Shown piece after piece: positions 2,129 through 10,997 of a stretch of 11,023 bases of DNA (position 1 is the first letter of the stretch; each line of letters begins with the position of its first letter). The position numbers were made by a program, and so were the translations under genes. This DNA is from a virus: UHGV virus genome UHGV-0053823. The stretch is one strand, 5' to 3'. Under the pieces are notes generated by a model, which saw nothing but the letters and a program-made list of their open reading frames with translations, ran no database searches and had not been told where the DNA came from.

Positions 2129-2158
2129 TGTTGTCGTCAACAGGCAGCGTGCTATCAT
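2129..2158 (+). promoter_or_regulatory. Putative sigma70 promoter of the TA operon with an overlapping palindromic operator
   Basis: TTGTCG (about 2131-2136), 16-nt spacer, TATCAT (about 2153-2158), roughly 36 nt upstream of the antitoxin ATG. Inverted repeat TGTTG-N4-CAACA (about 2129-2142) overlaps the -35, as expected for an autoregulated TA promoter. Confidence 0.3.
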
Positions 2159-2193
2159 CGAATAGTGTTCTATCCTACTCCGTGAGGTTTACC

Positions 2194-2451
2194 ATGCGTA
2201 CAACCCAACAATTCAGCATTACATTAACTAACGAGATGGCTGACATGGTGCGCGCCCGTGTGGCTTCCGGTGCCTATGCTTCAGAAAGCGAGGTCATTCG
2301 TGAAGGGCTTCGCGCACTGAATGAGCGCGATAAAGCAATCGAAGCGTGGTTAACGCATTCAGCCGCCCCCGCTCTTGATTCTATCCGCGAAAATCCAAAC
2401 AACGGACGCTCCATTTCACAGGTTCGCGCCGCGATTCGATCCGGGAAGTAA
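2194..2451 (+). CDS. Type II antitoxin, ribbon-helix-helix ParD-like
   Basis: 85-aa ORF from internal ATG 2194 with GAGG SD 6 nt upstream (the track ORF from 2131 is probably an over-extension). About 85 aa, sitting 5 nt upstream of a ParE/RelE-like toxin gene. The N-terminal region (FSITLTNEMADMVRARVASGAYASESEVIREGLRAL) looks like an RHH DNA-binding fold. Confidence 0.75.
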   Translation: MRTTQQFSITLTNEMADMVRARVASGAYASESEVIREGLRALNERDKAIEAWLTHSAAPALDSIRENPNNGRSISQVRAAIRSGK

Positions 2452-2456
2452 TCTGC

Positions 2457-2756
2457 ATGACATATGAAGTCATCATTACCCCCGAGGCCGAACAGCAGAT
2501 AATAAACCTGCACAGATATATAACGGAGAAAGCAGGAAGCGTCATTGCTGACAATTATGCCAATGCGCTTCTTGATTATCTTGATGGGTTTTCTACATTC
2601 CCGCATCGGGGCAATAAACGCGATGATATTCGCCAGGGAATGCGGGTAACTCACTTCCGCCACAGAACGATTATTGCTTTTGCCGTTGACGGCAATAAAG
2701 TCTTTATCGCGGGTATTTATCATGGTGGGCAAAGCTATGAAGCCGATTTCTTATAA
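2457..2756 (+). CDS. Type II toxin, ParE/RelE superfamily
   Basis: 99-aa ORF starting 5 nt after the antitoxin stop. Size and C-terminal pattern (RVTHFRHRTIIAFAVDGNKVFIAGIYHGGQSYEADF) are typical of ParE/RelE-fold toxins; antitoxin-toxin gene order fits. Confidence 0.75.
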   Translation: MTYEVIITPEAEQQIINLHRYITEKAGSVIADNYANALLDYLDGFSTFPHRGNKRDDIRQGMRVTHFRHRTIIAFAVDGNKVFIAGIYHGGQSYEADFL

Positions 2757-2836
2757 ACTTTTACCCACATCATTCCGGTGTTAAAATAAACCGTCCGCCC
2801 CCTCTCTTACTGGCGGATTCGTAGGCTATATAAATC

Positions 2837-2873
2837 AAAGATCCCGGCTCGTGTATGCGTCAGGATCTTTTTT
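2837..2873. terminator. Probable bidirectional intrinsic terminator between convergent genes
   Basis: Stem AAAGATCC / GGATCTTT (8 bp) around an 18-nt loop, followed by TTTTTT on the plus strand and a U-rich tract on the minus strand. Lies between the toxin stop (2756) and the end of the minus-strand operon (2881). Confidence 0.45.
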
Positions 2874-2880
2874 CGGTGAT

Positions 2881-2964
2881 TTATCCCCAGCGGCAAATCG
2901 CATACACCACCAGCGCCACCGCCATTGCAATTCCTACCGTTGTGAATGCTTCAGGCCAGGTCAT
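2881..2964 (-). CDS. 27-aa hydrophobic peptide (MTWPEAFTTVGIAMAVALVVYAICRWG), predicted single-pass membrane peptide
   Basis: Too short for the ORF track. Its ATG overlaps the DUF551 gene stop (ATGA) and has a GGAGGA SD 9 nt upstream. Hydrophobic core of about 20 residues flanked by charged or aromatic ends; followed by the terminator hairpin. Confidence 0.4.
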   Translation of the reverse strand: MTWPEAFTTVGIAMAVALVVYAICRWG

Positions 2965-3623
2965 CGTAAAATATCCTCCACGCTTATCAGTCCGTTCCGC
3001 TCCAGATAACTCATCGCCTTATCCGGTAATTTGCAGTCTGGCTTCGCTTTCCTCAGTTGACTGACCAATTGCTTAACCAGCATGGTTAATTCGTTAACCT
3101 GTTTTCCGGATGCTTGTGGATTGTCAGTTTTACCAGAAGTGTCGGTACAGTCGGCGTTCCCACTCTTCTCCTCCTGCGGCGGTTCCGGTAGCGGCATCCA
3201 GTGAGTTGCTTGCTCAATACCATTACCCGGCTTAATCGTTGCATCTCCGCGCCGGAATGTGCTTCCGGTATAGCGTGCGGAGCATATTAGCGGCTCAACC
3301 AGATCACTATCGAAATTCACCGAAATAAGTACGTTCTGATTCTTTTTCGGCATTCGCTCACTACAGCTTATCCAACCATCCGGAGTTACCGAAACTGGCG
3401 ACGCGGCATATAGTGGTTTAGGCGATATCTCCGCGCGTTTTGCGTATGCTTCAACTGTGTCAGGGTTAAACAGGATTATGTTTTCACCGCATTCCCACGC
3501 CACCGGCTCTGCTTCCAGCGATGCCAGCGCAATACGTGCAATTTGTCGAATCTCATCGTTAACGTTGCACATGCGCGGGTCATTGACGTACTGCTCAATG
3601 CGTTCTCTGCTAATAGTGGCCAT
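2961..3623 (-). CDS. DUF551 domain phage protein with Ea22-like N-terminal segment
   Basis: 220-aa ORF containing the WISCSERMPKKNQNVLISV ... THWMPLPEPP signature of DUF551. ATG start with AAAGGAGAG SD, 1 nt after the upstream stop. Confidence 0.7.
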   Translation of the reverse strand: MATISRERIEQYVNDPRMCNVNDEIRQIARIALASLEAEPVAWECGENIILFNPDTVEAYAKRAEISPKPLYAASPVSVTPDGWISCSERMPKKNQNVLISVNFDSDLVEPLICSARYTGSTFRRGDATIKPGNGIEQATHWMPLPEPPQEEKSGNADCTDTSGKTDNPQASGKQVNELTMLVKQLVSQLRKAKPDCKLPDKAMSYLERNGLISVEDILR

Positions 3624-3624
3624 C

Positions 3625-3957
3625 TCACTCTCCTTTGATGCGAATGCCAGCGACGCGTAGTGCGTGTTCTAAGTCAATCAGGCAAAGCCAACTGCCATTT
3701 TCTTTAGGTATCATGACATGCCGCTTATCAGCATTTATTGGGTGCCCATATCGAAGGTCGTAGCGAGTCGGTAATTGAACTTCCCTCGCTTCCAGTTCTG
3801 CAATGTGTTTGTTTTTAGCTTCTAGTTCATCCAGCAGCGCCAGCACAACCTGCGGTGTGACTTTCATACGAAATGCCAGCAATTTTTGTGGTGTGGCTAC
3901 TATTTTTATTGCTTCTGCCGCCTCACGCAGTGCCTGATAGTTAATTTCGGTTGTCAT
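3625..3957 (-). CDS. Ead/Ea22-like protein (short form)
   Basis: 110-aa ORF with ALREAAEA and VVLALLDELEAKNKHIAELEAR coiled-coil motifs typical of Ead/Ea22-like early proteins. Start overlaps the upstream stop (ATGA). Confidence 0.6.
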   Translation of the reverse strand: MTTEINYQALREAAEAIKIVATPQKLLAFRMKVTPQVVLALLDELEAKNKHIAELEAREVQLPTRYDLRYGHPINADKRHVMIPKENGSWLCLIDLEHALRVAGIRIKGE

Positions 3958-4832
3958 GCCACCACCTCTTCGAATTTCAACTCCAATTGATCACCCCAGA
4001 TTTCACATGATTCGGAACACGAACCAGTATCAAACCGCCTGGCTTGCACCATCGCCTGATACAAATTACTGTAGTCACTGTCGGCATACATTCTGGCAAT
4101 CCCGTCAAGCGTCAGGTGGCCACGGTACATAACGTCTTTTCCTGTTCTGCGATGACCATCCCTGACGTGTTTGCCTGTAACCAGTTCATTAAAAAACCGC
4201 ATCAGACCAGGTTCGTCTTTACATGCAAGCCCCAGCTTTTGCGTTGACTTTTTGATGCAGAAAACACAGTTCCCGAGGTGCTCTGGGATTTGCAAATCAA
4301 AAGGTTGTGCTCGCCACCACCGGATAACATCCGACTTATCAAAATGTGACAGTTCGGCAAGATACCGGACGCCCGGTTTCGGTTTCAGCCTACGGTGTTC
4401 GTCCGCACGAATACCCAGCCATGTGATGTAATTCCCTCGTCCGAAATGGTCATCGCAATATTTCGTGAAAGGGGTGAGTTTTAGCCTGTCAGTACAGAAC
4501 GCGCCGCCGATGTATGGCGTGCCGTACTTTTTAACCATATCCATAAACGGTTTAAGCACCGGCATTCGCGTCTGAATATCCTTTGGTTCCCATTCCGTAT
4601 AACTATTTGGCTGCCCAAGCTCTGGATTTATATCGACCTGCAACACGGTTAGTGGAATATCCCAGAACTTCACGACTTCCCGAATAAATCGGTATGTCAG
4701 CGGGTGTTCACATCCCGTATCCATGAATATGTAATGAACGTTTTCACCTGCCTTTCTGCGTTGCTCCATAAGGTGAACGAGATACGCCGATGTACGACCG
4801 CCTGAAAAACTCACAACATGATGAGCGCTCAT
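3954..4832 (-). CDS. PAPS reductase-like / PP-loop ATP pyrophosphatase family enzyme
   Basis: 292-aa ORF with N-terminal PP-loop motif VVSFSGGRTSAYL and C-terminal cysteine pairs (NCVFC, GSCSESC) suggesting a metal or Fe-S site. ATG start at 4832. Confidence 0.7.
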   Translation of the reverse strand: MSAHHVVSFSGGRTSAYLVHLMEQRRKAGENVHYIFMDTGCEHPLTYRFIREVVKFWDIPLTVLQVDINPELGQPNSYTEWEPKDIQTRMPVLKPFMDMVKKYGTPYIGGAFCTDRLKLTPFTKYCDDHFGRGNYITWLGIRADEHRRLKPKPGVRYLAELSHFDKSDVIRWWRAQPFDLQIPEHLGNCVFCIKKSTQKLGLACKDEPGLMRFFNELVTGKHVRDGHRRTGKDVMYRGHLTLDGIARMYADSDYSNLYQAMVQARRFDTGSCSESCEIWGDQLELKFEEVVA

Positions 4833-4961
4833 TTCTTCGTCTCTTTATGGGGGATTAAACTGGCGGTAAGCTGGAATTGCCGGATGCTCACCCGTGTCCG
4901 GCGCACGTCCTCCACCTCACCCGTGGAGAACTCCTTAACCACAACCCCTAAGGAGGGTGAA

Positions 4962-5183
4962 ATGGATCAAAATGAAAAAATTAAAATCGCATTTCTTGCC
5001 GCTTCAAACGCCACGGCTTTATTTATTAACACTCCGCACTATCGCCAAAAATTAGAAGAAAAGCCGGGACTAAAGAAAACAACAATGAACCCAGAGTTCA
5101 TTTTTAAGAACGAATTTAGTCTTCACATGAAGCGCCTTTCTGAAATTCTAAATGCTCATCAAGCCAGTCCAGATCGGGATTGA
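4962..5183 (+). CDS. Hypothetical 73-aa protein on the opposite strand (candidate moron)
   Basis: ATG at 4962 preceded by a near-perfect SD (TAAGGAGGgtgaaATG, 5-nt spacing). AT-rich coding sequence unlike its flanks. The 3' end overlaps the 3' end of the convergent 187-aa gene by 68 nt. No recognisable domain. Confidence 0.35.
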   Translation: MDQNEKIKIAFLAASNATALFINTPHYRQKLEEKPGLKKTTMNPEFIFKNEFSLHMKRLSEILNAHQASPDRD

Positions 5184-5679
5184 TACGCACCAGTTCGAGT
5201 GAATATTCCATGGCATCCCTGGCGTACTCTTTCGGGATGCCATTTTCTTCAAGAATATCCTGAACTTTCTGGCGAATAACCGGAACCAGGAAAAGAAGTT
5301 TTGTTTCACGATTGCCAAGTAGTTCTTCCAGATCGCGCGTAGCCTCTTCCAGATCGCGCGTGGCCTCTTCTGGATAGCGATTGCCCGGTATTGATTCCTG
5401 CGAATTATTCAGTCTTTCAACAGAATTAATTGATTTATCGTTTTCTGTTATATTGCGTTTGATGTTTTGTTGACCTTTATTAAGGCAGCAATTTTGAATA
5501 TGGTCCTTGTGCTTTTCATTATCATAAGCATACAGCCCGACAAAAATATCCCGCAAGTTTCGGGAGATATTTTCCAGATTCGCCTTTGGTTCTTTTCTTA
5601 AATCAACCACCGATAAATGAGCTTTAAGCGTATCCGCAGCTACTTTCTGAATGTCCTCGGGTAAATCTTTAAATTGCAT
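5116..5679 (-). CDS. Hypothetical 187-aa protein with an internal EATRDLE tandem repeat
   Basis: ATG start with GAGGA SD 8 nt upstream; AT-rich, charged, probably helical protein. No family recognised. Confidence 0.55.
   Translation of the reverse strand: MQFKDLPEDIQKVAADTLKAHLSVVDLRKEPKANLENISRNLRDIFVGLYAYDNEKHKDHIQNCCLNKGQQNIKRNITENDKSINSVERLNNSQESIPGNRYPEEATRDLEEATRDLEELLGNRETKLLFLVPVIRQKVQDILEENGIPKEYARDAMEYSLELVRINPDLDWLDEHLEFQKGASCED
5325..5379. repeat. In-frame 21-bp tandem repeat (two units plus a degenerate third) inside the 187-aa gene
   Basis: CTTCCAGATCGCGCGTAGCCT followed by CTTCCAGATCGCGCGTGGCCT (1 mismatch), then a partial third unit CTTCTGGATAGCG. Encodes the repeated EATRDLE heptad on the minus strand. 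Confidence 0.8.
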
Positions 5680-5755
5680 AATATATCCTCATAGAACGGT
5701 GTATTTTCTCGTGAAATGTGAGCGATATGTCGTGACGTCCCTGTCACAGATTTCA

Positions 5756-6577
5756 TCAGACTGAGAATGTGCCGATGAAGGTTAAGATATCTGCTTCTTC
5801 GAAACGCTCTTTCAGCAGGTCACGGAACTCTTTGGCAATTTCTTCTTCCGCAGCTTCAATGCGCACGATACGTAGTACCAGAACAGGTTGCTCGCTGGTC
5901 AGAATACTTAGACGCAGGGTGAACTCACGGTTGCTCAGGCCCTCGAATGGGATGCATTCAAAGCGGAAAGTGGCAGGCATGATTTCCTTACTTTTAGCCT
6001 CCACTGATTCCATAACTGAGCGGCTACCGCTGAAGTTTTGTTCTTCATATTCAGCACTGCGTTTTGCATCGATAGTCAGACGACGGACAGCAGAGATAGC
6101 CTGTTTGATATCCAGTACATTACCGTCGCTGTCATAGGCCGTGAGGAAGTCGGCCCAGTCTTCCAGCCATTCAGCGAGAGATTTCTGGAGTTGTTTTTTG
6201 CCGTCCACGTCACGTAATGCGCGATATGGTGATGTGGCTTTCAGTTCCAGCAGTGCCTTGTTGTCAGCATGTCCTGGTTGATCCAGAGTGCCGATATTGA
6301 ACACAGTGACCGCTTTCATCGTTTCCGCGTTAATGAAGCAACGAGAGAACCCATCGACATAACCTTTGCTGTATTCAACAAAGTCATCAATACTGGTTGT
6401 GGTCATGACTCCACGGAAACGAAAGCGTTCTGTCATGAATCGCTCCAGACTTTCAATATTTACATTGTCCGGCAATAACGTAACGGGGCATTCCGTAAGC
6501 GGCAAATTTTCACCAGAAAAAGCAGTAGTGGTGAGCTTTACAATTTCTTTAATGGCATTGCTATCTAACTGAGACAT
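5756..6577 (-). CDS. Hypothetical 273-aa phage protein (size and context reminiscent of YfdQ/DUF2303; unverified)
   Basis: Long ORF with ATG start and a weak SD; non-repetitive sequence. Family assignment is tentative, based on length and on being downstream of a roughly 115-aa gene as in the yfdP-yfdQ pair. Confidence 0.6.
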   Translation of the reverse strand: MSQLDSNAIKEIVKLTTTAFSGENLPLTECPVTLLPDNVNIESLERFMTERFRFRGVMTTTSIDDFVEYSKGYVDGFSRCFINAETMKAVTVFNIGTLDQPGHADNKALLELKATSPYRALRDVDGKKQLQKSLAEWLEDWADFLTAYDSDGNVLDIKQAISAVRRLTIDAKRSAEYEEQNFSGSRSVMESVEAKSKEIMPATFRFECIPFEGLSNREFTLRLSILTSEQPVLVLRIVRIEAAEEEIAKEFRDLLKERFEEADILTFIGTFSV

Positions 6578-6646
6578 ATATATTTACCTGAGAAATAAAT
6601 TATTTATGGTTGATATCCCCTGATGTTTTCAGGAGGGAGTGATTAT

Positions 6647-6994
6647 TTAGCGTAAAACAGCGTCATGTTGGCCCTGTTTATCGAAAAGCTGTCCCTGGTC
6701 TTTCTGGAACAAAGTAAGCTCACCACCTTTATTTACAAACATCGGGGTGTTAGTCGTGTCTTCTTCTGATTTACTACCACGCATTGTCGGGCGTGTGAAT
6801 TTTAGTTTATGGGAAACTGATACGCGATTTTCATCAAGTGAAGATAATTCGAATTCAACACATACCTTTCCTTTTTTGTTTGTGCTGTTTACGCCAAAGG
6901 CAACTTCACTTAATACCGCACCAAGTTTATTAACAAATACCCCGCCGTCGAGGTCGTTAATGAAAACATTAACATCTGTCTGATGCTGACTCAT
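6647..6994 (-). CDS. Hypothetical 115-aa phage protein (possibly YfdP-like; unverified)
   Basis: ATG start with GGAG SD about 9 nt upstream; same strand and spacing as the neighbouring operon genes. Confidence 0.55.
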   Translation of the reverse strand: MSQHQTDVNVFINDLDGGVFVNKLGAVLSEVAFGVNSTNKKGKVCVEFELSSLDENRVSVSHKLKFTRPTMRGSKSEEDTTNTPMFVNKGGELTLFQKDQGQLFDKQGQHDAVLR

Positions 6995-7068
6995 ATTGAT
7001 ATCTCCGTGTAGAGAGTGTATTGAGGCTTCAGTTGTTTACTGAATTTAAAGCCTGGTTTGTTTGTGAA

Positions 7069-7656
7069 TTAAAAACTATCGCCGCCGTACTGCCAGTAAC
7101 CCGGGTCGTCCGTGTGATTCGGGTTTGCGTTTTTGCTGCGATTGTCTTTGTCTTTGAGAGTGGAAGCTATATTTGCTACAGTTTCTGGTTTCTTTCCTTC
7201 TGCCTTTTCTTTCAGGGTTTGCCCTGTTTCTGCAATGAATGGAATACGGATTTCCATCTGGTAACTGTCTGCGCCAGTCTTTTTGTTTATGGTTAATACT
7301 TTCTGTAGCACCAACCCGATTTTCTTTCCGTGGAATTCAGGGGCAACGTATTTACTGACGGAAACCATATGTTGCGTTAACTGCCTGATTCCTGCACATC
7401 CCATCATTGCATGAACAATATTTGCACCAAACTTGTTTTCCGTTCCGTCATTTTTCTGAACACAAACACTGAGATACTGAATTTTGCGTCCGTCGTCGGA
7501 TTCTCCAGAAAACTCAATGAATCGGGCACCTTTTTCTGATTGCTTGAGTTCTGCTTCAGTAATGGTAATGATATGCGCACCTGTTTCGGTAATGAAACCA
7601 CCTTGTCCGGCGGTCAGTGCTGCTTCTTCGTTATAAGTAAAAATCACTTCATCCAT
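7069..7656 (-). CDS. Hypothetical 195-aa protein immediately downstream of exo
   Basis: ATG start 7 nt after the exo stop. C-terminal region is Lys-rich then acidic/aromatic, ending ...DDPGYWQYGGDSF. No confident family assignment. Confidence 0.55.
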   Translation of the reverse strand: MDEVIFTYNEEAALTAGQGGFITETGAHIITITEAELKQSEKGARFIEFSGESDDGRKIQYLSVCVQKNDGTENKFGANIVHAMMGCAGIRQLTQHMVSVSKYVAPEFHGKKIGLVLQKVLTINKKTGADSYQMEIRIPFIAETGQTLKEKAEGKKPETVANIASTLKDKDNRSKNANPNHTDDPGYWQYGGDSF

Positions 7657-7662
7657 TAGTTA

Positions 7663-8346
7663 TTAACCCCCCCATTGTTCTCCAAATACAAAACCAATTT
7701 CAGCCAGGGCTTCGTCCATTTTTTCGATGAACTCCGGCACCATCTCATCAAAACTCGCCATGTACTTTTCATCCCGTTCGACCACGACATAATGCAGGCC
7801 TTCTCGCTTCATGCGCGGGTCGTAGTTGGCAAAGTACCAGGCGTCCTTGTCTGTAACCCACATGCTGAATTGCACCTGAGCCATATAAGCGGGTTTGATA
7901 GCATCAAAGCCGCCAAGTCTGAACTTCATGAAGTCGCGGGAAGTGAAGGGACATTTCAGTTCAAGACCGTTGCCGTCGCTGCATAAACCGTCGGGAGAGC
8001 AGGCGGTGCGCATGCTTTCGTCACGAAAAATTATGGGCGTTTCCGAGACGGTAATATCCGCGATAAATTCGAAGAGGGCACGGGCATCATCTTCATACTG
8101 CTTTCCCCATGCGAGCGACTTAGCGTTAACTTCCGGTGCCACGCCGGTACAAACTTCAGCCAGCAGGGTGTGGAAGTATGAGATTTTGGTATCAGGCCAT
8201 TTGCTGCCGGAACGTGGCTTTGCTATCACATTGTGAACTTCTGAAGCCGTGATAATGCCGAGCCTGAGTTTGTGCCACCCATCATCGTCCTGGCTGAGTG
8301 TGGTAATATCCACGCCAGTTCGCTGGAGAATAATTTCTGGCGTCAT
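7663..8346 (-). CDS. exo: Lambda-type 5'-3' exonuclease (Red-alpha / Exo)
   Basis: 227-aa ORF that matches lambda Exo, as I recall it, along nearly its whole length ([11 protein letters not shown]..., [56 protein letters not shown]-terminus [10 protein letters not shown]). Start overlaps the annealase stop (ATGA). Confidence 0.9.
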
Positions 8347-9293
8347 GATACGGCCTCGCTGTTATTTTCCGTGGTGGCGTGAACTTTCGCTTCCGCCGTG
8401 GCCTTGTTTCTGGCAGCTTTCTTTTTGACGAAAGCCAGCGCTTTGACAGCTTCTTCCTGATTGAGATTTTCATGTGATGCAATCGTGCGACCGAATATTT
8501 GGGAACACAGGGGGATCAGGTCATCCCATGTTTTGTTAATTTCGCTCATAGCCTGAGTGATCTCATTAATAATCTCATCTGATGCGGGAGTGACGTCACG
8601 CTCAGGGGGGTGATCAGCATTCAGGATGATACCTTCCCCGGCCTGAGTGTTCAGGTAGTCGATAGCCGTATCCAGGCGATCACGACGGGGCCAGTATTTG
8701 CTGGCGCGTTTAACAATGACTTTGCGGGCCATTTCATCGGGGAAACTATCCCACGGACTACTTCCCCCGTTCTGTCCGGCCTTGCTGCACGCTCTGATGG
8801 CTTCGATTGCCTCGTTGCTCATCTCTTCGGTCAGATAGTCGCCTTCGGATGTTTTGACGACACAATAACCGCCAATACGTGCGCCCCTGTCGACAAACGG
8901 GTTGTATTTGTGAGTGGGGGCGCAGTCAATGCCGTTGGACTCGTAAATGTCCTTCTCGTAAACAAGTTTGCATTGCCCCCACTGAATGGCTCCTGTGACC
9001 TGCGCCAGATGCAGAAGTCCCATATAACTGATATCCAGGCATACAGCACCTTTTCGCGGGACCAGATACGCCAGCTTACTGGCGGGGTTCAGGGTTATAC
9101 CAATGGCTGCAACATTGATGATAGCGTTCTGTGCGCTGGCTAGATTTCCCTGTGCTGTTTTAGCCAGAAAGTCATTTTTCTGGAATTGCTGAATTGCAAA
9201 CTGACTTTCCTTCGCCCATGTCAGCGTTGGTTCAGTCAATGCCTCGCAGAAAAATCGCTCCTGCTGTTTAACAAATTCAACGATATCGAACAT
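8343..9293 (-). CDS. ssDNA annealing protein: RecT-family core with a lambda Bet-like C-terminal domain
   Basis: Core motifs match RecT ([41 protein letters not shown] versus RecT SKAGNNGPWVTHWEEMAKKTAIRRLFKYLP). The C-terminal 70 aa ([16 protein letters not shown]...[20 protein letters not shown]...[15 protein letters not shown]) match the lambda Bet C-terminus as I recall it. Start placed at internal ATG 9293 (AGGA upstream, 16 nt after the Gam-like stop); the track's ATG at 9362 would overlap the upstream gene by 53 nt. Confidence 0.85.
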
Positions 9294-9309
9294 TTTTTGG
9301 TCCTGAAAA

Positions 9310-9591
9310 TCAGAAAGGACAGGGGGAGAATTTCCTCTCCCATTCTTCTTCCGCCCGTGCATAGGCGATCGCTGAGATATAATCGTTGTACGCCTCTTCA
9401 GCTTTATCGCCAGTAAGTGCCAGCTGGGCTTCTTTGGGTAAAAAAAGGCTGCTCATAAGCAATGGTTTATCGGGGAACATGCTGATAAGCTCCAGCGCCC
9501 GATCATCAATCCATTTATCCTTTTCATCCTGAATTTGCTGATTAACCCAGCGACGCTCCTCTATGCGGTCGCAGGTTAGGTATGCGTTCAT
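9310..9591 (-). CDS. Putative Gam-like RecBCD inhibitor
   Basis: 93-aa ORF with AGGAG SD 7 nt upstream. N-terminus MNAYLTCDRIEERRW resembles the start of the short form of lambda Gam (MNAYYIQDRLEAQSW), and it sits directly upstream of the annealase and exo as gam does in lambda. Similarity beyond the N-terminus is weak. Confidence 0.45.
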   Translation of the reverse strand: MNAYLTCDRIEERRWVNQQIQDEKDKWIDDRALELISMFPDKPLLMSSLFLPKEAQLALTGDKAEEAYNDYISAIAYARAEEEWERKFSPCPF

Positions 9592-10187: not shown

Positions 10188-10832
10188 TTAAAGATTAACG
10201 TTGAAACCAAAGCGGGAAGATTTTTCCGATGTACGGGAAATATCCAGCAATTTACGGCGCATTTCTTCCGTCAGATGTTTGAAAGCGTTAAATTCGGCAA
10301 CAGCGGCGTCAACGTTATAGCCCTTGCTGTGTAGTTCGTTGAGGATGCGCATAGTTGGGCTTGGCATATCGAAGAGCACGGAAGCATCAAGGCTGATAAC
10401 TTTGCGATCAACATAATTCATCGTGGCGTAGGGGTGATGCTCAGAAAACCACGATAAAGGGAAATTGATGTTCATCGCAGGAGAAGACAGGGCCAGTTGT
10501 TTCTGTTCCCATAGTTGTTTTTCCATGCGATCGAATTCAGCGATGTAGGCTTCTTTGAAAGCTGCGGCTTTTTTACCAGTGAATCCCATTACCAGGAAGA
10601 CGAAGCCGTTTTTGGTGATTTGATAGGCGTTATAGGTATTACCCCGGTGTTCGAATTTAACCCGCGAAAAGTTGCTGGTTAAGAATTGTTCAGAGCATTC
10701 AAGGGATTCTATTTTCTGAACAACATGGTGATGCTGCTTCTCAAAGAACTCTGCGATGTCAATTGACGTAGTGATGGCATTGCCGTTTTCAATAGTTACG
10801 GATGGGCGAGAAAGGGGAGATATAGTAGCCAT
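10188..10832 (-). CDS. Phage regulatory protein, Rha family
   Basis: 214-aa ORF from internal ATG 10832 preceded by a consensus SD (AAGGAGG, 9-nt spacing). N-terminal domain ITTSIDIAEFFEKQHHHVVQKIESLE ... YQITKNGFVFLVMGFTGKKAAAFKEAYIAEFDRMEKQL matches the Rha domain. Confidence 0.75.
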   Translation of the reverse strand: MATISPLSRPSVTIENGNAITTSIDIAEFFEKQHHHVVQKIESLECSEQFLTSNFSRVKFEHRGNTYNAYQITKNGFVFLVMGFTGKKAAAFKEAYIAEFDRMEKQLWEQKQLALSSPAMNINFPLSWFSEHHPYATMNYVDRKVISLDASVLFDMPSPTMRILNELHSKGYNVDAAVAEFNAFKHLTEEMRRKLLDISRTSEKSSRFGFNVNL

Positions 10833-10997
10833 GGTGGCAGCCTCCTTGATTGGTGATTGATAACCACCGCCGGAGGTCCTAAACTCGCTGGCGGTGGACT
10901 GTACAGGGTTAGGACTACTGGCAATCAAGGGAACCAGCCCGACCGAAGTCGGCCCCATACAGCCCACCATTGATAAGATGTGCGTGCATGTCGATAC

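Follow-up and report, generated by a model that had tools for sequence, protein, structure and literature searches.

A homolog of phage λ NinC in the early region of virus genome UHGV-0053823 and its kinship with DNA phosphorothioation sulfurtransferases

The ninC gene and its protein

The window analyzed here is a stretch of 11,023 bp of virus genome UHGV-0053823. An ATG-initiated open reading frame (ORF) at 3954..4832 on its minus strand, found by the ORF list at the coordinates given in a preliminary description made from the DNA letters, encodes a protein of 292 amino acids that is an ordinary, intact member of the NinC family (Orf290 of phage λ). This family is long known and widely annotated, and its presence here is a matter of recognition rather than discovery. 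NinC is most likely a DNA-directed sulfurtransferase-type counter-defense enzyme.

The protein is 79.9% identical in amino acid sequence to the product of the NinC locus of λ imm434 (over residues 5–287), it matches PHROG 424 over residues 2–291 (E = 1.8e-91) and PHROG 33262 with a similar value (E about 1e-91). At the DNA level the gene is 100% identical to one of Escherichia phage vB_EcoP_phi367 (PV189406), where it is annotated “phosphoadenosine phosphosulfate reductase,” and ∼95% identical to genes named NinC in Stx2 phages. The Pfam model PAPS_reduct (PF01507; PAPS is phosphoadenosine phosphosulfate) scores 37.9 bits against a cut-off of 22.5. Elsewhere the gene carries the annotation “phosphoadenosine phosphosulfate reductase family protein.” The preliminary description had correctly identified a PP-loop enzyme but missed that it belongs to the family of λ NinC, to which it is ∼80% identical. 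There is essentially no doubt that this is a NinC-family enzyme with a PAPS-reductase fold, a conserved nucleotide loop, and a conserved set of cysteines. Window NinC resembles λ NinC along its full length and has all of the family-invariant residues. The λ gene is nonessential (PMC10695390) and has no assigned function or protein partner (PMC10695390; PMC3224144). Our searches of the literature for “NinC” found no functional study, which agrees with the earlier statement that no substrate could be named.

When 1.84 billion cluster representatives (50% identity) were searched with a profile, 3016 relatives had E≤1e-3, and 367 had E≤1e-30. The gene is present in 545 of 5426 complete E. coli genomes, with a match to at least 80% of its length in 423, and 74 NinC places are on plasmid records of complete E. 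coli genomes. The listed close plasmid matches are on records of about 92–117 kb, and a clade of 34%-identical proteins is found on Acinetobacter plasmids of roughly 55–90 kb; these NinC-bearing plasmids may be phage-plasmids. The median ratio of nonsynonymous to synonymous substitution rates (dN/dS) against 37 distinct alleles is 0.10, and the gene is real and under constraint. Its features, and the two genes that follow it in the same operon, are as follows.

3954..4832, minus strand: NinC-family gene, 292 amino acids (ORF list, PHROG 424, identity to phi367 and λ NinC, dN/dS 0.10)
4788..4811, minus strand: variant PP-loop SFSGGRTS, residues 8–15 (read from the DNA; near-invariant in 113 family representatives)
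4479..4499, minus strand: FCTDRLK motif, residues 112–118, with invariant C113 and K118 (113/113 representatives)
4248..4274, minus strand: GNCVFCIKK, residues 187–195, with invariant G187, N188, C189, C192, and K195 (113/113); proposed Fe–S ligands
3957..4037, minus strand: C-terminal tail, residues 266–292, low-confidence in the structure model, carrying C272-S-E-S-C276
4005..4019, minus strand: CSESC dyad, residues 272–276 (C272 in 106/113, C276 in 109/113)
3954..3957, minus strand: ATGA overlap of the NinC stop codon TGA (3954-3956) with the Ea22-like start codon ATG (3957-3955), read from the DNA; translational coupling
3625..3957, minus strand: Ead/Ea22-like gene, 110 amino acids, downstream in the same operon (Pfam PF13935, E = 4e-12)
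2961..3623, minus strand: DUF551 gene, 220 amino acids, downstream in the same operon (Pfam PF04448, E = 2.8e-21)

The DUF551 gene starts one base beyond the Ea22-like ORF, and the ORF list and Pfam scan thus agree with the description of an early phage operon in which ninC is coupled to Ea22-like and DUF551 genes.

Conservation was measured in 113 representatives of 50%-identity clusters and, separately, in 28 aligned close homologs. Residues E42, C113, K118, G140, R142, R148, G187, N188, C189, C192, and K195 are invariant across the 113 representatives, and D144 and E145 are present in 111 and 112 of them, respectively; C41 and C126 are not conserved. The PP-loop on which the first assignment was based is retained throughout the family (S10 in 111, G11 in 105, G12 in 110, T/S14 in 111, and S15 in 111 of the 113). 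It is nevertheless a variant PP-loop, since the canonical SGGxDS is found in none of the 113 and the loop Asp is replaced family-wide by Thr or Ser. The tail motif in most members is CxESCE. These motifs are conserved and are not due to chance. Both of the cysteine pairs that had been called C-terminal exist and are conserved, but only C272xxxC276 lies in the tail; C189xxC192, together with C113, aligns with the Fe–S ligands of adenosine phosphosulfate (APS) reductases.

NinC has an adenine-nucleotide α-hydrolase fold of the PAPS-reductase branch, as was initially proposed. In addition to the Pfam match, an AlphaFold2 model built from the 28-sequence alignment has a mean predicted local distance difference test score (pLDDT) of 84.7 and a predicted template modeling score of 0.83, its best matches among solved structures are CysH proteins and APS reductases, and Foldseek agrees. 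A fold search of viral models in BFVD returned solely unnamed or generically named PAPS-reductase models. Residues 266–292 fall below pLDDT 50, and the tail that bears the Cys dyad is probably flexible. One relative, a hybrid protein of 294 amino acids found on 20 contigs (P0020), has both DUF551 and PAPS_reduct Pfam domains and matches NinC at 94% identity across 79% of the query; it may represent a deletion that joined NinC to the downstream DUF551 gene with loss of the Cys-dyad tail.

Phosphorothioation enzymes, DNA methyltransferases, and escape from Dnd

Profile and structure searches for the nearest relatives, which the preliminary description had recommended, returned λ NinC (PHROG 424), the CysH and APS reductase structures and, as the top-scoring proteins of a defense-system library, SspD, BrxP, and DndC, the sulfurtransferases of phosphorothioation systems. 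BrxP belongs to a bacteriophage exclusion (BREX) system, BREX-4, and the kinship with phosphorothioation and BREX enzymes suggested earlier is thus borne out. SspD is matched by all 28 aligned family members (best E = 3.7e-17), BrxP by 27, and DndC by 10. The window protein itself matches the PADLOC SspD profile with E = 1.1e-15 over positions 1–121 of 277 only, and it is far from satisfying the full-length DndC model TIGR03183 (17.3 bits against a cut-off of 290.4). NinC is a sister family to DndC, SspD, and BrxP and not a member of any of them; it is also encoded by phages, whereas these three are encoded by hosts.

Alignment with hhalign to the DndC protein of an Aureimonas plasmid (L099; probability 93.9) places FSGGRTS over FSGGKDS, FCTDRLKLTP over WCTDRLKIQP with the hexapeptide CTDRLK identical, and WLGIRADE over LLGVRRDE (the GxRxDE/RxDE motif). 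The PP-loop also aligns with SFSGAED of APS reductase. In the global alignment of the 113-member NinC set with an Acinetobacter APS reductase (plasmid record L180; probability 95.9), C113 is opposite the first of the two adjacent cysteines (CC) in ECCGIRKVQPL, and C189 and C192 are opposite the CxxC in SIGCEPCT; NinC has Thr in place of the second cysteine of CC. In APS reductases (structure 2GOY), the [4Fe-4S] cluster is bound at these CC...CxxC positions. The cysteine equivalences rest on global alignments with one APS reductase and one DndC, both from plasmid records; the C-terminal half is aligned with low confidence, and past residue 150 the alignment with DndC is unreliable. A profile of the middle segment alone (residues 96–205) had no matches among PDB sequences.

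DndC is described as a PP-loop ATP pyrophosphatase with a 4Fe-4S center on three cysteines and, apart from these, a Cys dyad presumed to pass sulfur on (PMC10853773). SspD is active as a pyrophosphatase, and each of SspD and DndC binds its desulfurase (PMC7188994). Because the layout of NinC (loop, three invariant cysteines, and tail dyad) matches that of DndC, we infer an Fe–S cluster on C113/C189/C192 and a persulfide-carrying tail. NinC would thus have in common with DndC, SspD, and BrxP the PP-loop domain, the CTDRLK and RxDE motifs, and this inferred arrangement of three Fe–S cysteines and a Cys dyad.

The genomic associations of the family are with DNA. Fusions to Dam-type methyltransferases (PF05869), in both domain orders, occur in five of the best 150 cluster representatives, and one of these 150 is fused to a D12-class methyltransferase (PF02086). 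Five further Dam fusions were found among close homologs, and three methyltransferase fusions among 80 diverse viral loci. In two loci (L011 and L012) the start of an MT-A70 methyltransferase gene overlaps the NinC stop codon. At these loci (3501-4945) a 57%-identical homolog follows DUF1317 in the early left operon that runs from Kil to integrase, and this is the clearest unfused NinC-methyltransferase pair that we saw. Across the relatives, the fused or coupled DNA adenine methyltransferases belong to three families that are not related to one another. Within 3 kb of NinC, the 80 diverse viral loci include one Dam and three MT-A70 methyltransferases, and the most frequent families in the 142 immediate neighbors at diverse loci are DNA polymerase A (8), DUF5906 primase (6), helicases, a 5′-3′ exonuclease, and four DNA methyltransferases. 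Genes for sulfur assimilation do not appear in the 25 most frequent of the 56 Pfam families that these neighbors match. In the annotated regions of Chi-like and Vibrio phages the neighbors are mostly “hypothetical protein.” The fusions, the coupling, and the neighbors are three independent lines that point to DNA. The methyltransferase link holds for parts of the family and not for the clade to which the window protein belongs. In phi367 and one other locus with the identical gene (L015), an MT-A70-like methyltransferase lies 2.3 kb downstream; in the 11-kb window, the ORF list and library scans found no methyltransferase. The window protein ends 16 residues past the Cys dyad, and no C-terminal Dam domain is present on the same polypeptide.

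One homolog connects the family to a phenotype. Protein p0018 of Vibrio phage 44E38.1 (P0096 in our set) carries the description “Dam methyltransferase with PAPS reductase domain.” It shares 56% identity with the window protein across 95% of the query (E = 1.2e-95) and, in the 28-homolog alignment, keeps every NinC-invariant residue. It is the only homolog with an experimental phenotype. Piel et al. reported that phages able to infect a Vibrio crassostreae clade with Dnd are set apart by just two specific genes, p0018 and its neighbor p0019, and that a sensitive phage into which both had been recombined plated fully, at 1e11 plaque-forming units (PFU)/ml, on the Dnd-retaining host (bioRxiv 10.1101/2021.05.05.442762). 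Later papers treat this result as the sole functional evidence and regard phage PAPS reductases as candidate anti-defense genes (PMC13551039). The interpretation in the preliminary description, in which the gene could counter host defense, is supported, although the published link of a 56%-identical homolog to escape from Dnd had been missed. The Vibrio protein resembles that of the window in its PAPS-type domain and differs from it in its Dam domain, its host, and the defense system involved.

The surrounding early region

The remainder of the window is a lambdoid early region by Pfam and library scans, and its other recognizable features are as follows.

10188-10970, minus strand: Rha-type regulator (window scan)
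8343-9362, minus strand: RecT (window scan)
7663-8346: YqaJ exonuclease (window scan)
5756-6577: DUF2303/YfdQ (window scan)
2131-2756, plus strand: ParD/ParE pair (Pfam E = 2.3e-07 and 5.8e-10)

The position of the window gene differs from that of λ ninC. In six prophages a 56%-identical homolog (P0089) occupies the canonical place in the nin region, with NinB on one side and NinE on the other. The window copy lies outside such a region, between the ORF at 5116-5679 and the Ea22-like gene and not between ninB and ninD/ninE; it follows the RecT/YqaJ/DUF2303 block and precedes the Ea22-like and DUF551 genes, as in phi367. A place in the nin region is the source of the NinC name and not a property of the protein. 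The match between the window and phi367 is limited to bp 3170-8292 (5.1 kb, from the C-terminus of DUF551 to the exonuclease; 97.7% identity), and the flanks are unrelated. In phi367 this block is part of the pL operon, where gam/recT and xis/int flank it, and in the window it lies between the Rha regulator and the DUF968 and RusA genes. At most 71% of the window is found in any one complete E. coli genome of the collection. The window ninC copy thus sits in a mosaic block; it is a typical, intact family member in a mosaic position and adds nothing further by itself.

Upstream of ninC is a 283-bp gap (4833-5115) that has no confident gene and in which the phi367 record annotates two tiny ORFs; no coding-strand promoter or terminator was predicted there in a scan of bp 2700-5800, and an antisense ORF across it (4818-5183, plus strand) is probably spurious. 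The next ORF upstream (5116-5679, minus strand; 187 amino acids) matches no Pfam family, and in its product a peptide is duplicated in tandem (EEATRDL, two copies). At 53 of 80 close prophage loci this ORF is replaced by one whose product, by eye and not by scan, looks like an HD-domain protein of the YfdR type.

Downstream, the DUF968 and then the RusA genes lie beyond the ParD antitoxin/ParE toxin pair, which is on the opposite strand within the minus-strand early operon, between DUF551 and DUF968/RusA, and looks like an inserted moron. At the other end of the window, the longest RecT ORF encodes 339 amino acids and the annotated phi367 RecT-like gene 261; this region is outside the block shared with phi367, and the two may be different alleles. 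The Pfam RecT match begins at residue 54 of the 339 amino acid ORF, so its true start may be further downstream than the ORF call. In the Rha ORF, an Ash-like N-terminal segment (residues 1–51) precedes the Rha domain and may reflect an over-long ORF call or a fusion.

Proposed function and alternatives

The best-supported function for NinC is action on DNA, in modification or in counter-defense, and we put its probability at about 0.5. Going by the alignments to APS reductase and DndC, a [4Fe-4S] cluster would be held by the invariant cysteines C113, C189, and C192, and the nucleotide site would either activate the substrate with ATP, as in DndC and SspD, or bind a sulfonucleotide. The tail dyad C272/C276 would carry a persulfide received from a host cysteine desulfurase such as IscS. 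The fusions, the neighbors, and the experiment with the Vibrio homolog suggest DNA as the substrate, with the replicating genome of the phage itself as the most probable target. The outcome would be a sulfur-containing or other covalent mark, or else interference with the host phosphorothioate machinery, either of which would allow escape from modification-dependent restriction of the Dnd/Ssp type. The gene would be expressed from the early operon alongside recombination genes and would be dispensable on undefended hosts.

Several observations weigh against this interpretation. To our knowledge, no biochemical activity or modification has been demonstrated for any NinC-family protein. The sequence similarity to SspD and DndC ends near residue 148 (the hhalign alignment to DndC ends at 147), and the PP-loop lacks its canonical Asp (SGGRTS against SGGKDS). 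The N-terminal 70 residues closely resemble those of APS and PAPS reductases, and the ligand might be a sulfonucleotide and not ATP. NinC has no partner ATPase, recognition subunit, or desulfurase nearby. No proven phosphorothioate writer can do without a P-loop NTPase (DndD, SspC, or BrxC) and a subunit for DNA recognition (PMC12914056). The ORF list and scans found no genes for the partner NTPase or for DNA recognition (DndE, SspB, DUF4007) in the window, and none of these families ranks in the 25 most frequent of the 56 Pfam families hit by the 142 immediate neighbors of NinC at the diverse viral loci. Among 80 close E. coli prophage loci, only one has a methyltransferase within 3 kb (Dam, D12, and MT-A70 were tested). 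The PAPS-type domain of p0018 is fused to Dam, and a second gene was transferred along with it, which means that the phenotype is not assignable to that domain alone (bioRxiv 10.1101/2021.05.05.442762). In another study, vibriophages that carry a PAPS reductase showed no Dnd-dependent difference (PMC10945359). Finally, λ is restricted 3- to 60-fold (efficiency of plating 0.016–0.3) by three Dnd systems, in a strain whose ninC status was not checked (PMC10470545); it follows that NinC by itself gives no general protection against Dnd.

Among the alternatives, it is improbable that NinC modifies RNA, as an Fe–S tRNA thiolase (TtcA, TtuA, NcsA) or a TilS-like enzyme that retunes tRNAs of the host or the phage or shields them from anticodon nucleases. 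The combination of a PP-loop with a CxxC does resemble the layout of TtcA-type thiolases (PMC12914056). However, Pfam and NCBIfam scans found no RNA-binding domain (PUA, THUMP, or TilS C-terminal), the TilS hidden Markov model is matched only marginally (E = 0.0017), and every identified fusion partner is a DNA methyltransferase. A tRNA gene cluster is nearby in only one of the four annotated phage loci inspected, that of Vibrio phage 98E28-3.

A true assimilatory PAPS/APS reductase, that is, an auxiliary metabolic gene that makes sulfite for cysteine supply during infection or lysogeny, is what the usual database annotation implies and what several virome papers have assumed. Much of the evidence given above is of the kind such an enzyme would produce: the passed PAPS_reduct model, the CysH and APS reductase structures as nearest solved relatives, the alignment of three cysteines with APS-reductase Fe–S ligands, and a DTGxxHPxTYxFI block very similar to that of APS reductase. 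The catalytic motif is nevertheless missing. ECG[ILV]H is found in none of the 113 representatives, which have the CxESCE tail instead, and the NCBIfam equivalog models score 14–25 bits against cut-offs of 154–254 (PRK02090, 24.6/154; TIGR00434, 16.7/165.1; TIGR02057, 14.5/254.2; TIGR02055, 13.8/235.3). Since the protein has no ECG[ILV]H and misses the curated models widely, it is not an assimilatory sulfonucleotide reductase by the family-defining features. The sequence similarity to solved CysH proteins and APS reductases is limited to the first ∼100 residues. Compared with the APS reductase of P. aeruginosa (CysH, 2GOY) and the PAPS reductase of E. coli (CysH, 1SUR), which have the ECGLH motif, NinC lacks the second Cys of the CC pair but has a true GG in its loop, and it has inserts of ∼25 residues (68–95) and, before the tail, of ∼65 helical residues (197–264). 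Recurrent fusion to DNA methyltransferases would make no sense for a metabolic enzyme, the neighbors are replication and recombination genes and not those of sulfur assimilation, and E. coli hosts already possess cysH. The conclusion that NinC is not a metabolic CysH is well supported, and we consider an assimilatory role unlikely.

Equally unlikely, in our estimate, is a decoy or inhibitor that resembles DndC and SspD and titrates the desulfurase or the DndD/DndE or SspB/SspC proteins, or binds the restriction module, without modification of phage DNA. The homology to the N-terminal domain of DndC and SspD, CTDRLK included, the absence of a partner NTPase of its own in the window scans, and the homolog tied to an anti-Dnd phenotype would all fit such a role, as would the binding of SspD and DndC to their desulfurases (PMC7188994). 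On the other hand, the nucleotide loop and candidate catalytic residues are near-invariant below 50% identity and dN/dS is 0.10, which points to catalysis. Neither Dnd nor Ssp is known in most of the E. coli hosts that harbor these prophages, and yet about 10% of complete E. coli genomes keep the gene. Halting host modification would not by itself shield unmodified phage DNA from DndFGH.

The location of the gene could instead suggest an accessory enzyme that serves the replication or recombination of phage DNA or the metabolism of the nucleotide pool and takes no part in evading defense. In λ-like phages it lies in the nin region and adjoins the recombination genes NinB and NinG, in the window it follows RecT, the YqaJ exonuclease, and an SSB-like gene, its upstream neighbor in the 53 close loci noted above has the look of a YfdR-type HD-domain protein, and in diverse phages it lies beside DNA polymerase, primase, and dATP/dGTP pyrophosphohydrolase genes. 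We know of no replication or recombination factor that uses a PAPS-reductase-type fold such as that of NinC, and the fusion partners are modification enzymes and not replication proteins. In λ, ninC is nonessential and no replication phenotype has been reported (PMC10695390). We consider this role, too, improbable. A function like that of QueC in 7-deazaguanine synthesis was rejected, as the Pfam QueC model is matched only at E = 0.17 and neither DpdA nor any Que gene is present.

A stronger form of the interpretation that NinC acts on DNA, which we regard as unlikely though a little less so than any of the alternatives above, is that NinC is an autonomous DNA sulfur-modifier, for example a minimal single-protein phosphorothioate writer that uses a host desulfurase, its own [4Fe-4S] cluster, and the tail dyad. 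Sequence specificity would then be supplied by replication intermediates or by an adenine methyltransferase that is fused to NinC or expressed along with it. If this were true, lambdoid phages including λ would bear a previously unseen sulfur mark on their DNA, one that mimics “self” to Dnd-, Ssp-, or BREX-4-type immunity or blocks other nucleases.

NinC is one of the last λ genes without an assigned function, and virome studies routinely call its family a sulfur-metabolism “auxiliary metabolic gene.” The absence of the CysH catalytic motif, the repeated methyltransferase fusions, and the replication-gene context argue that this label is wrong for the family and favor a chemistry directed at DNA and akin to that of DndC and SspD. 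If NinC does carry out DNA chemistry like that of DndC and SspD, a widespread annotation would be corrected and a mechanism would be provided for the escape of phages from phosphorothioate-based immunity.

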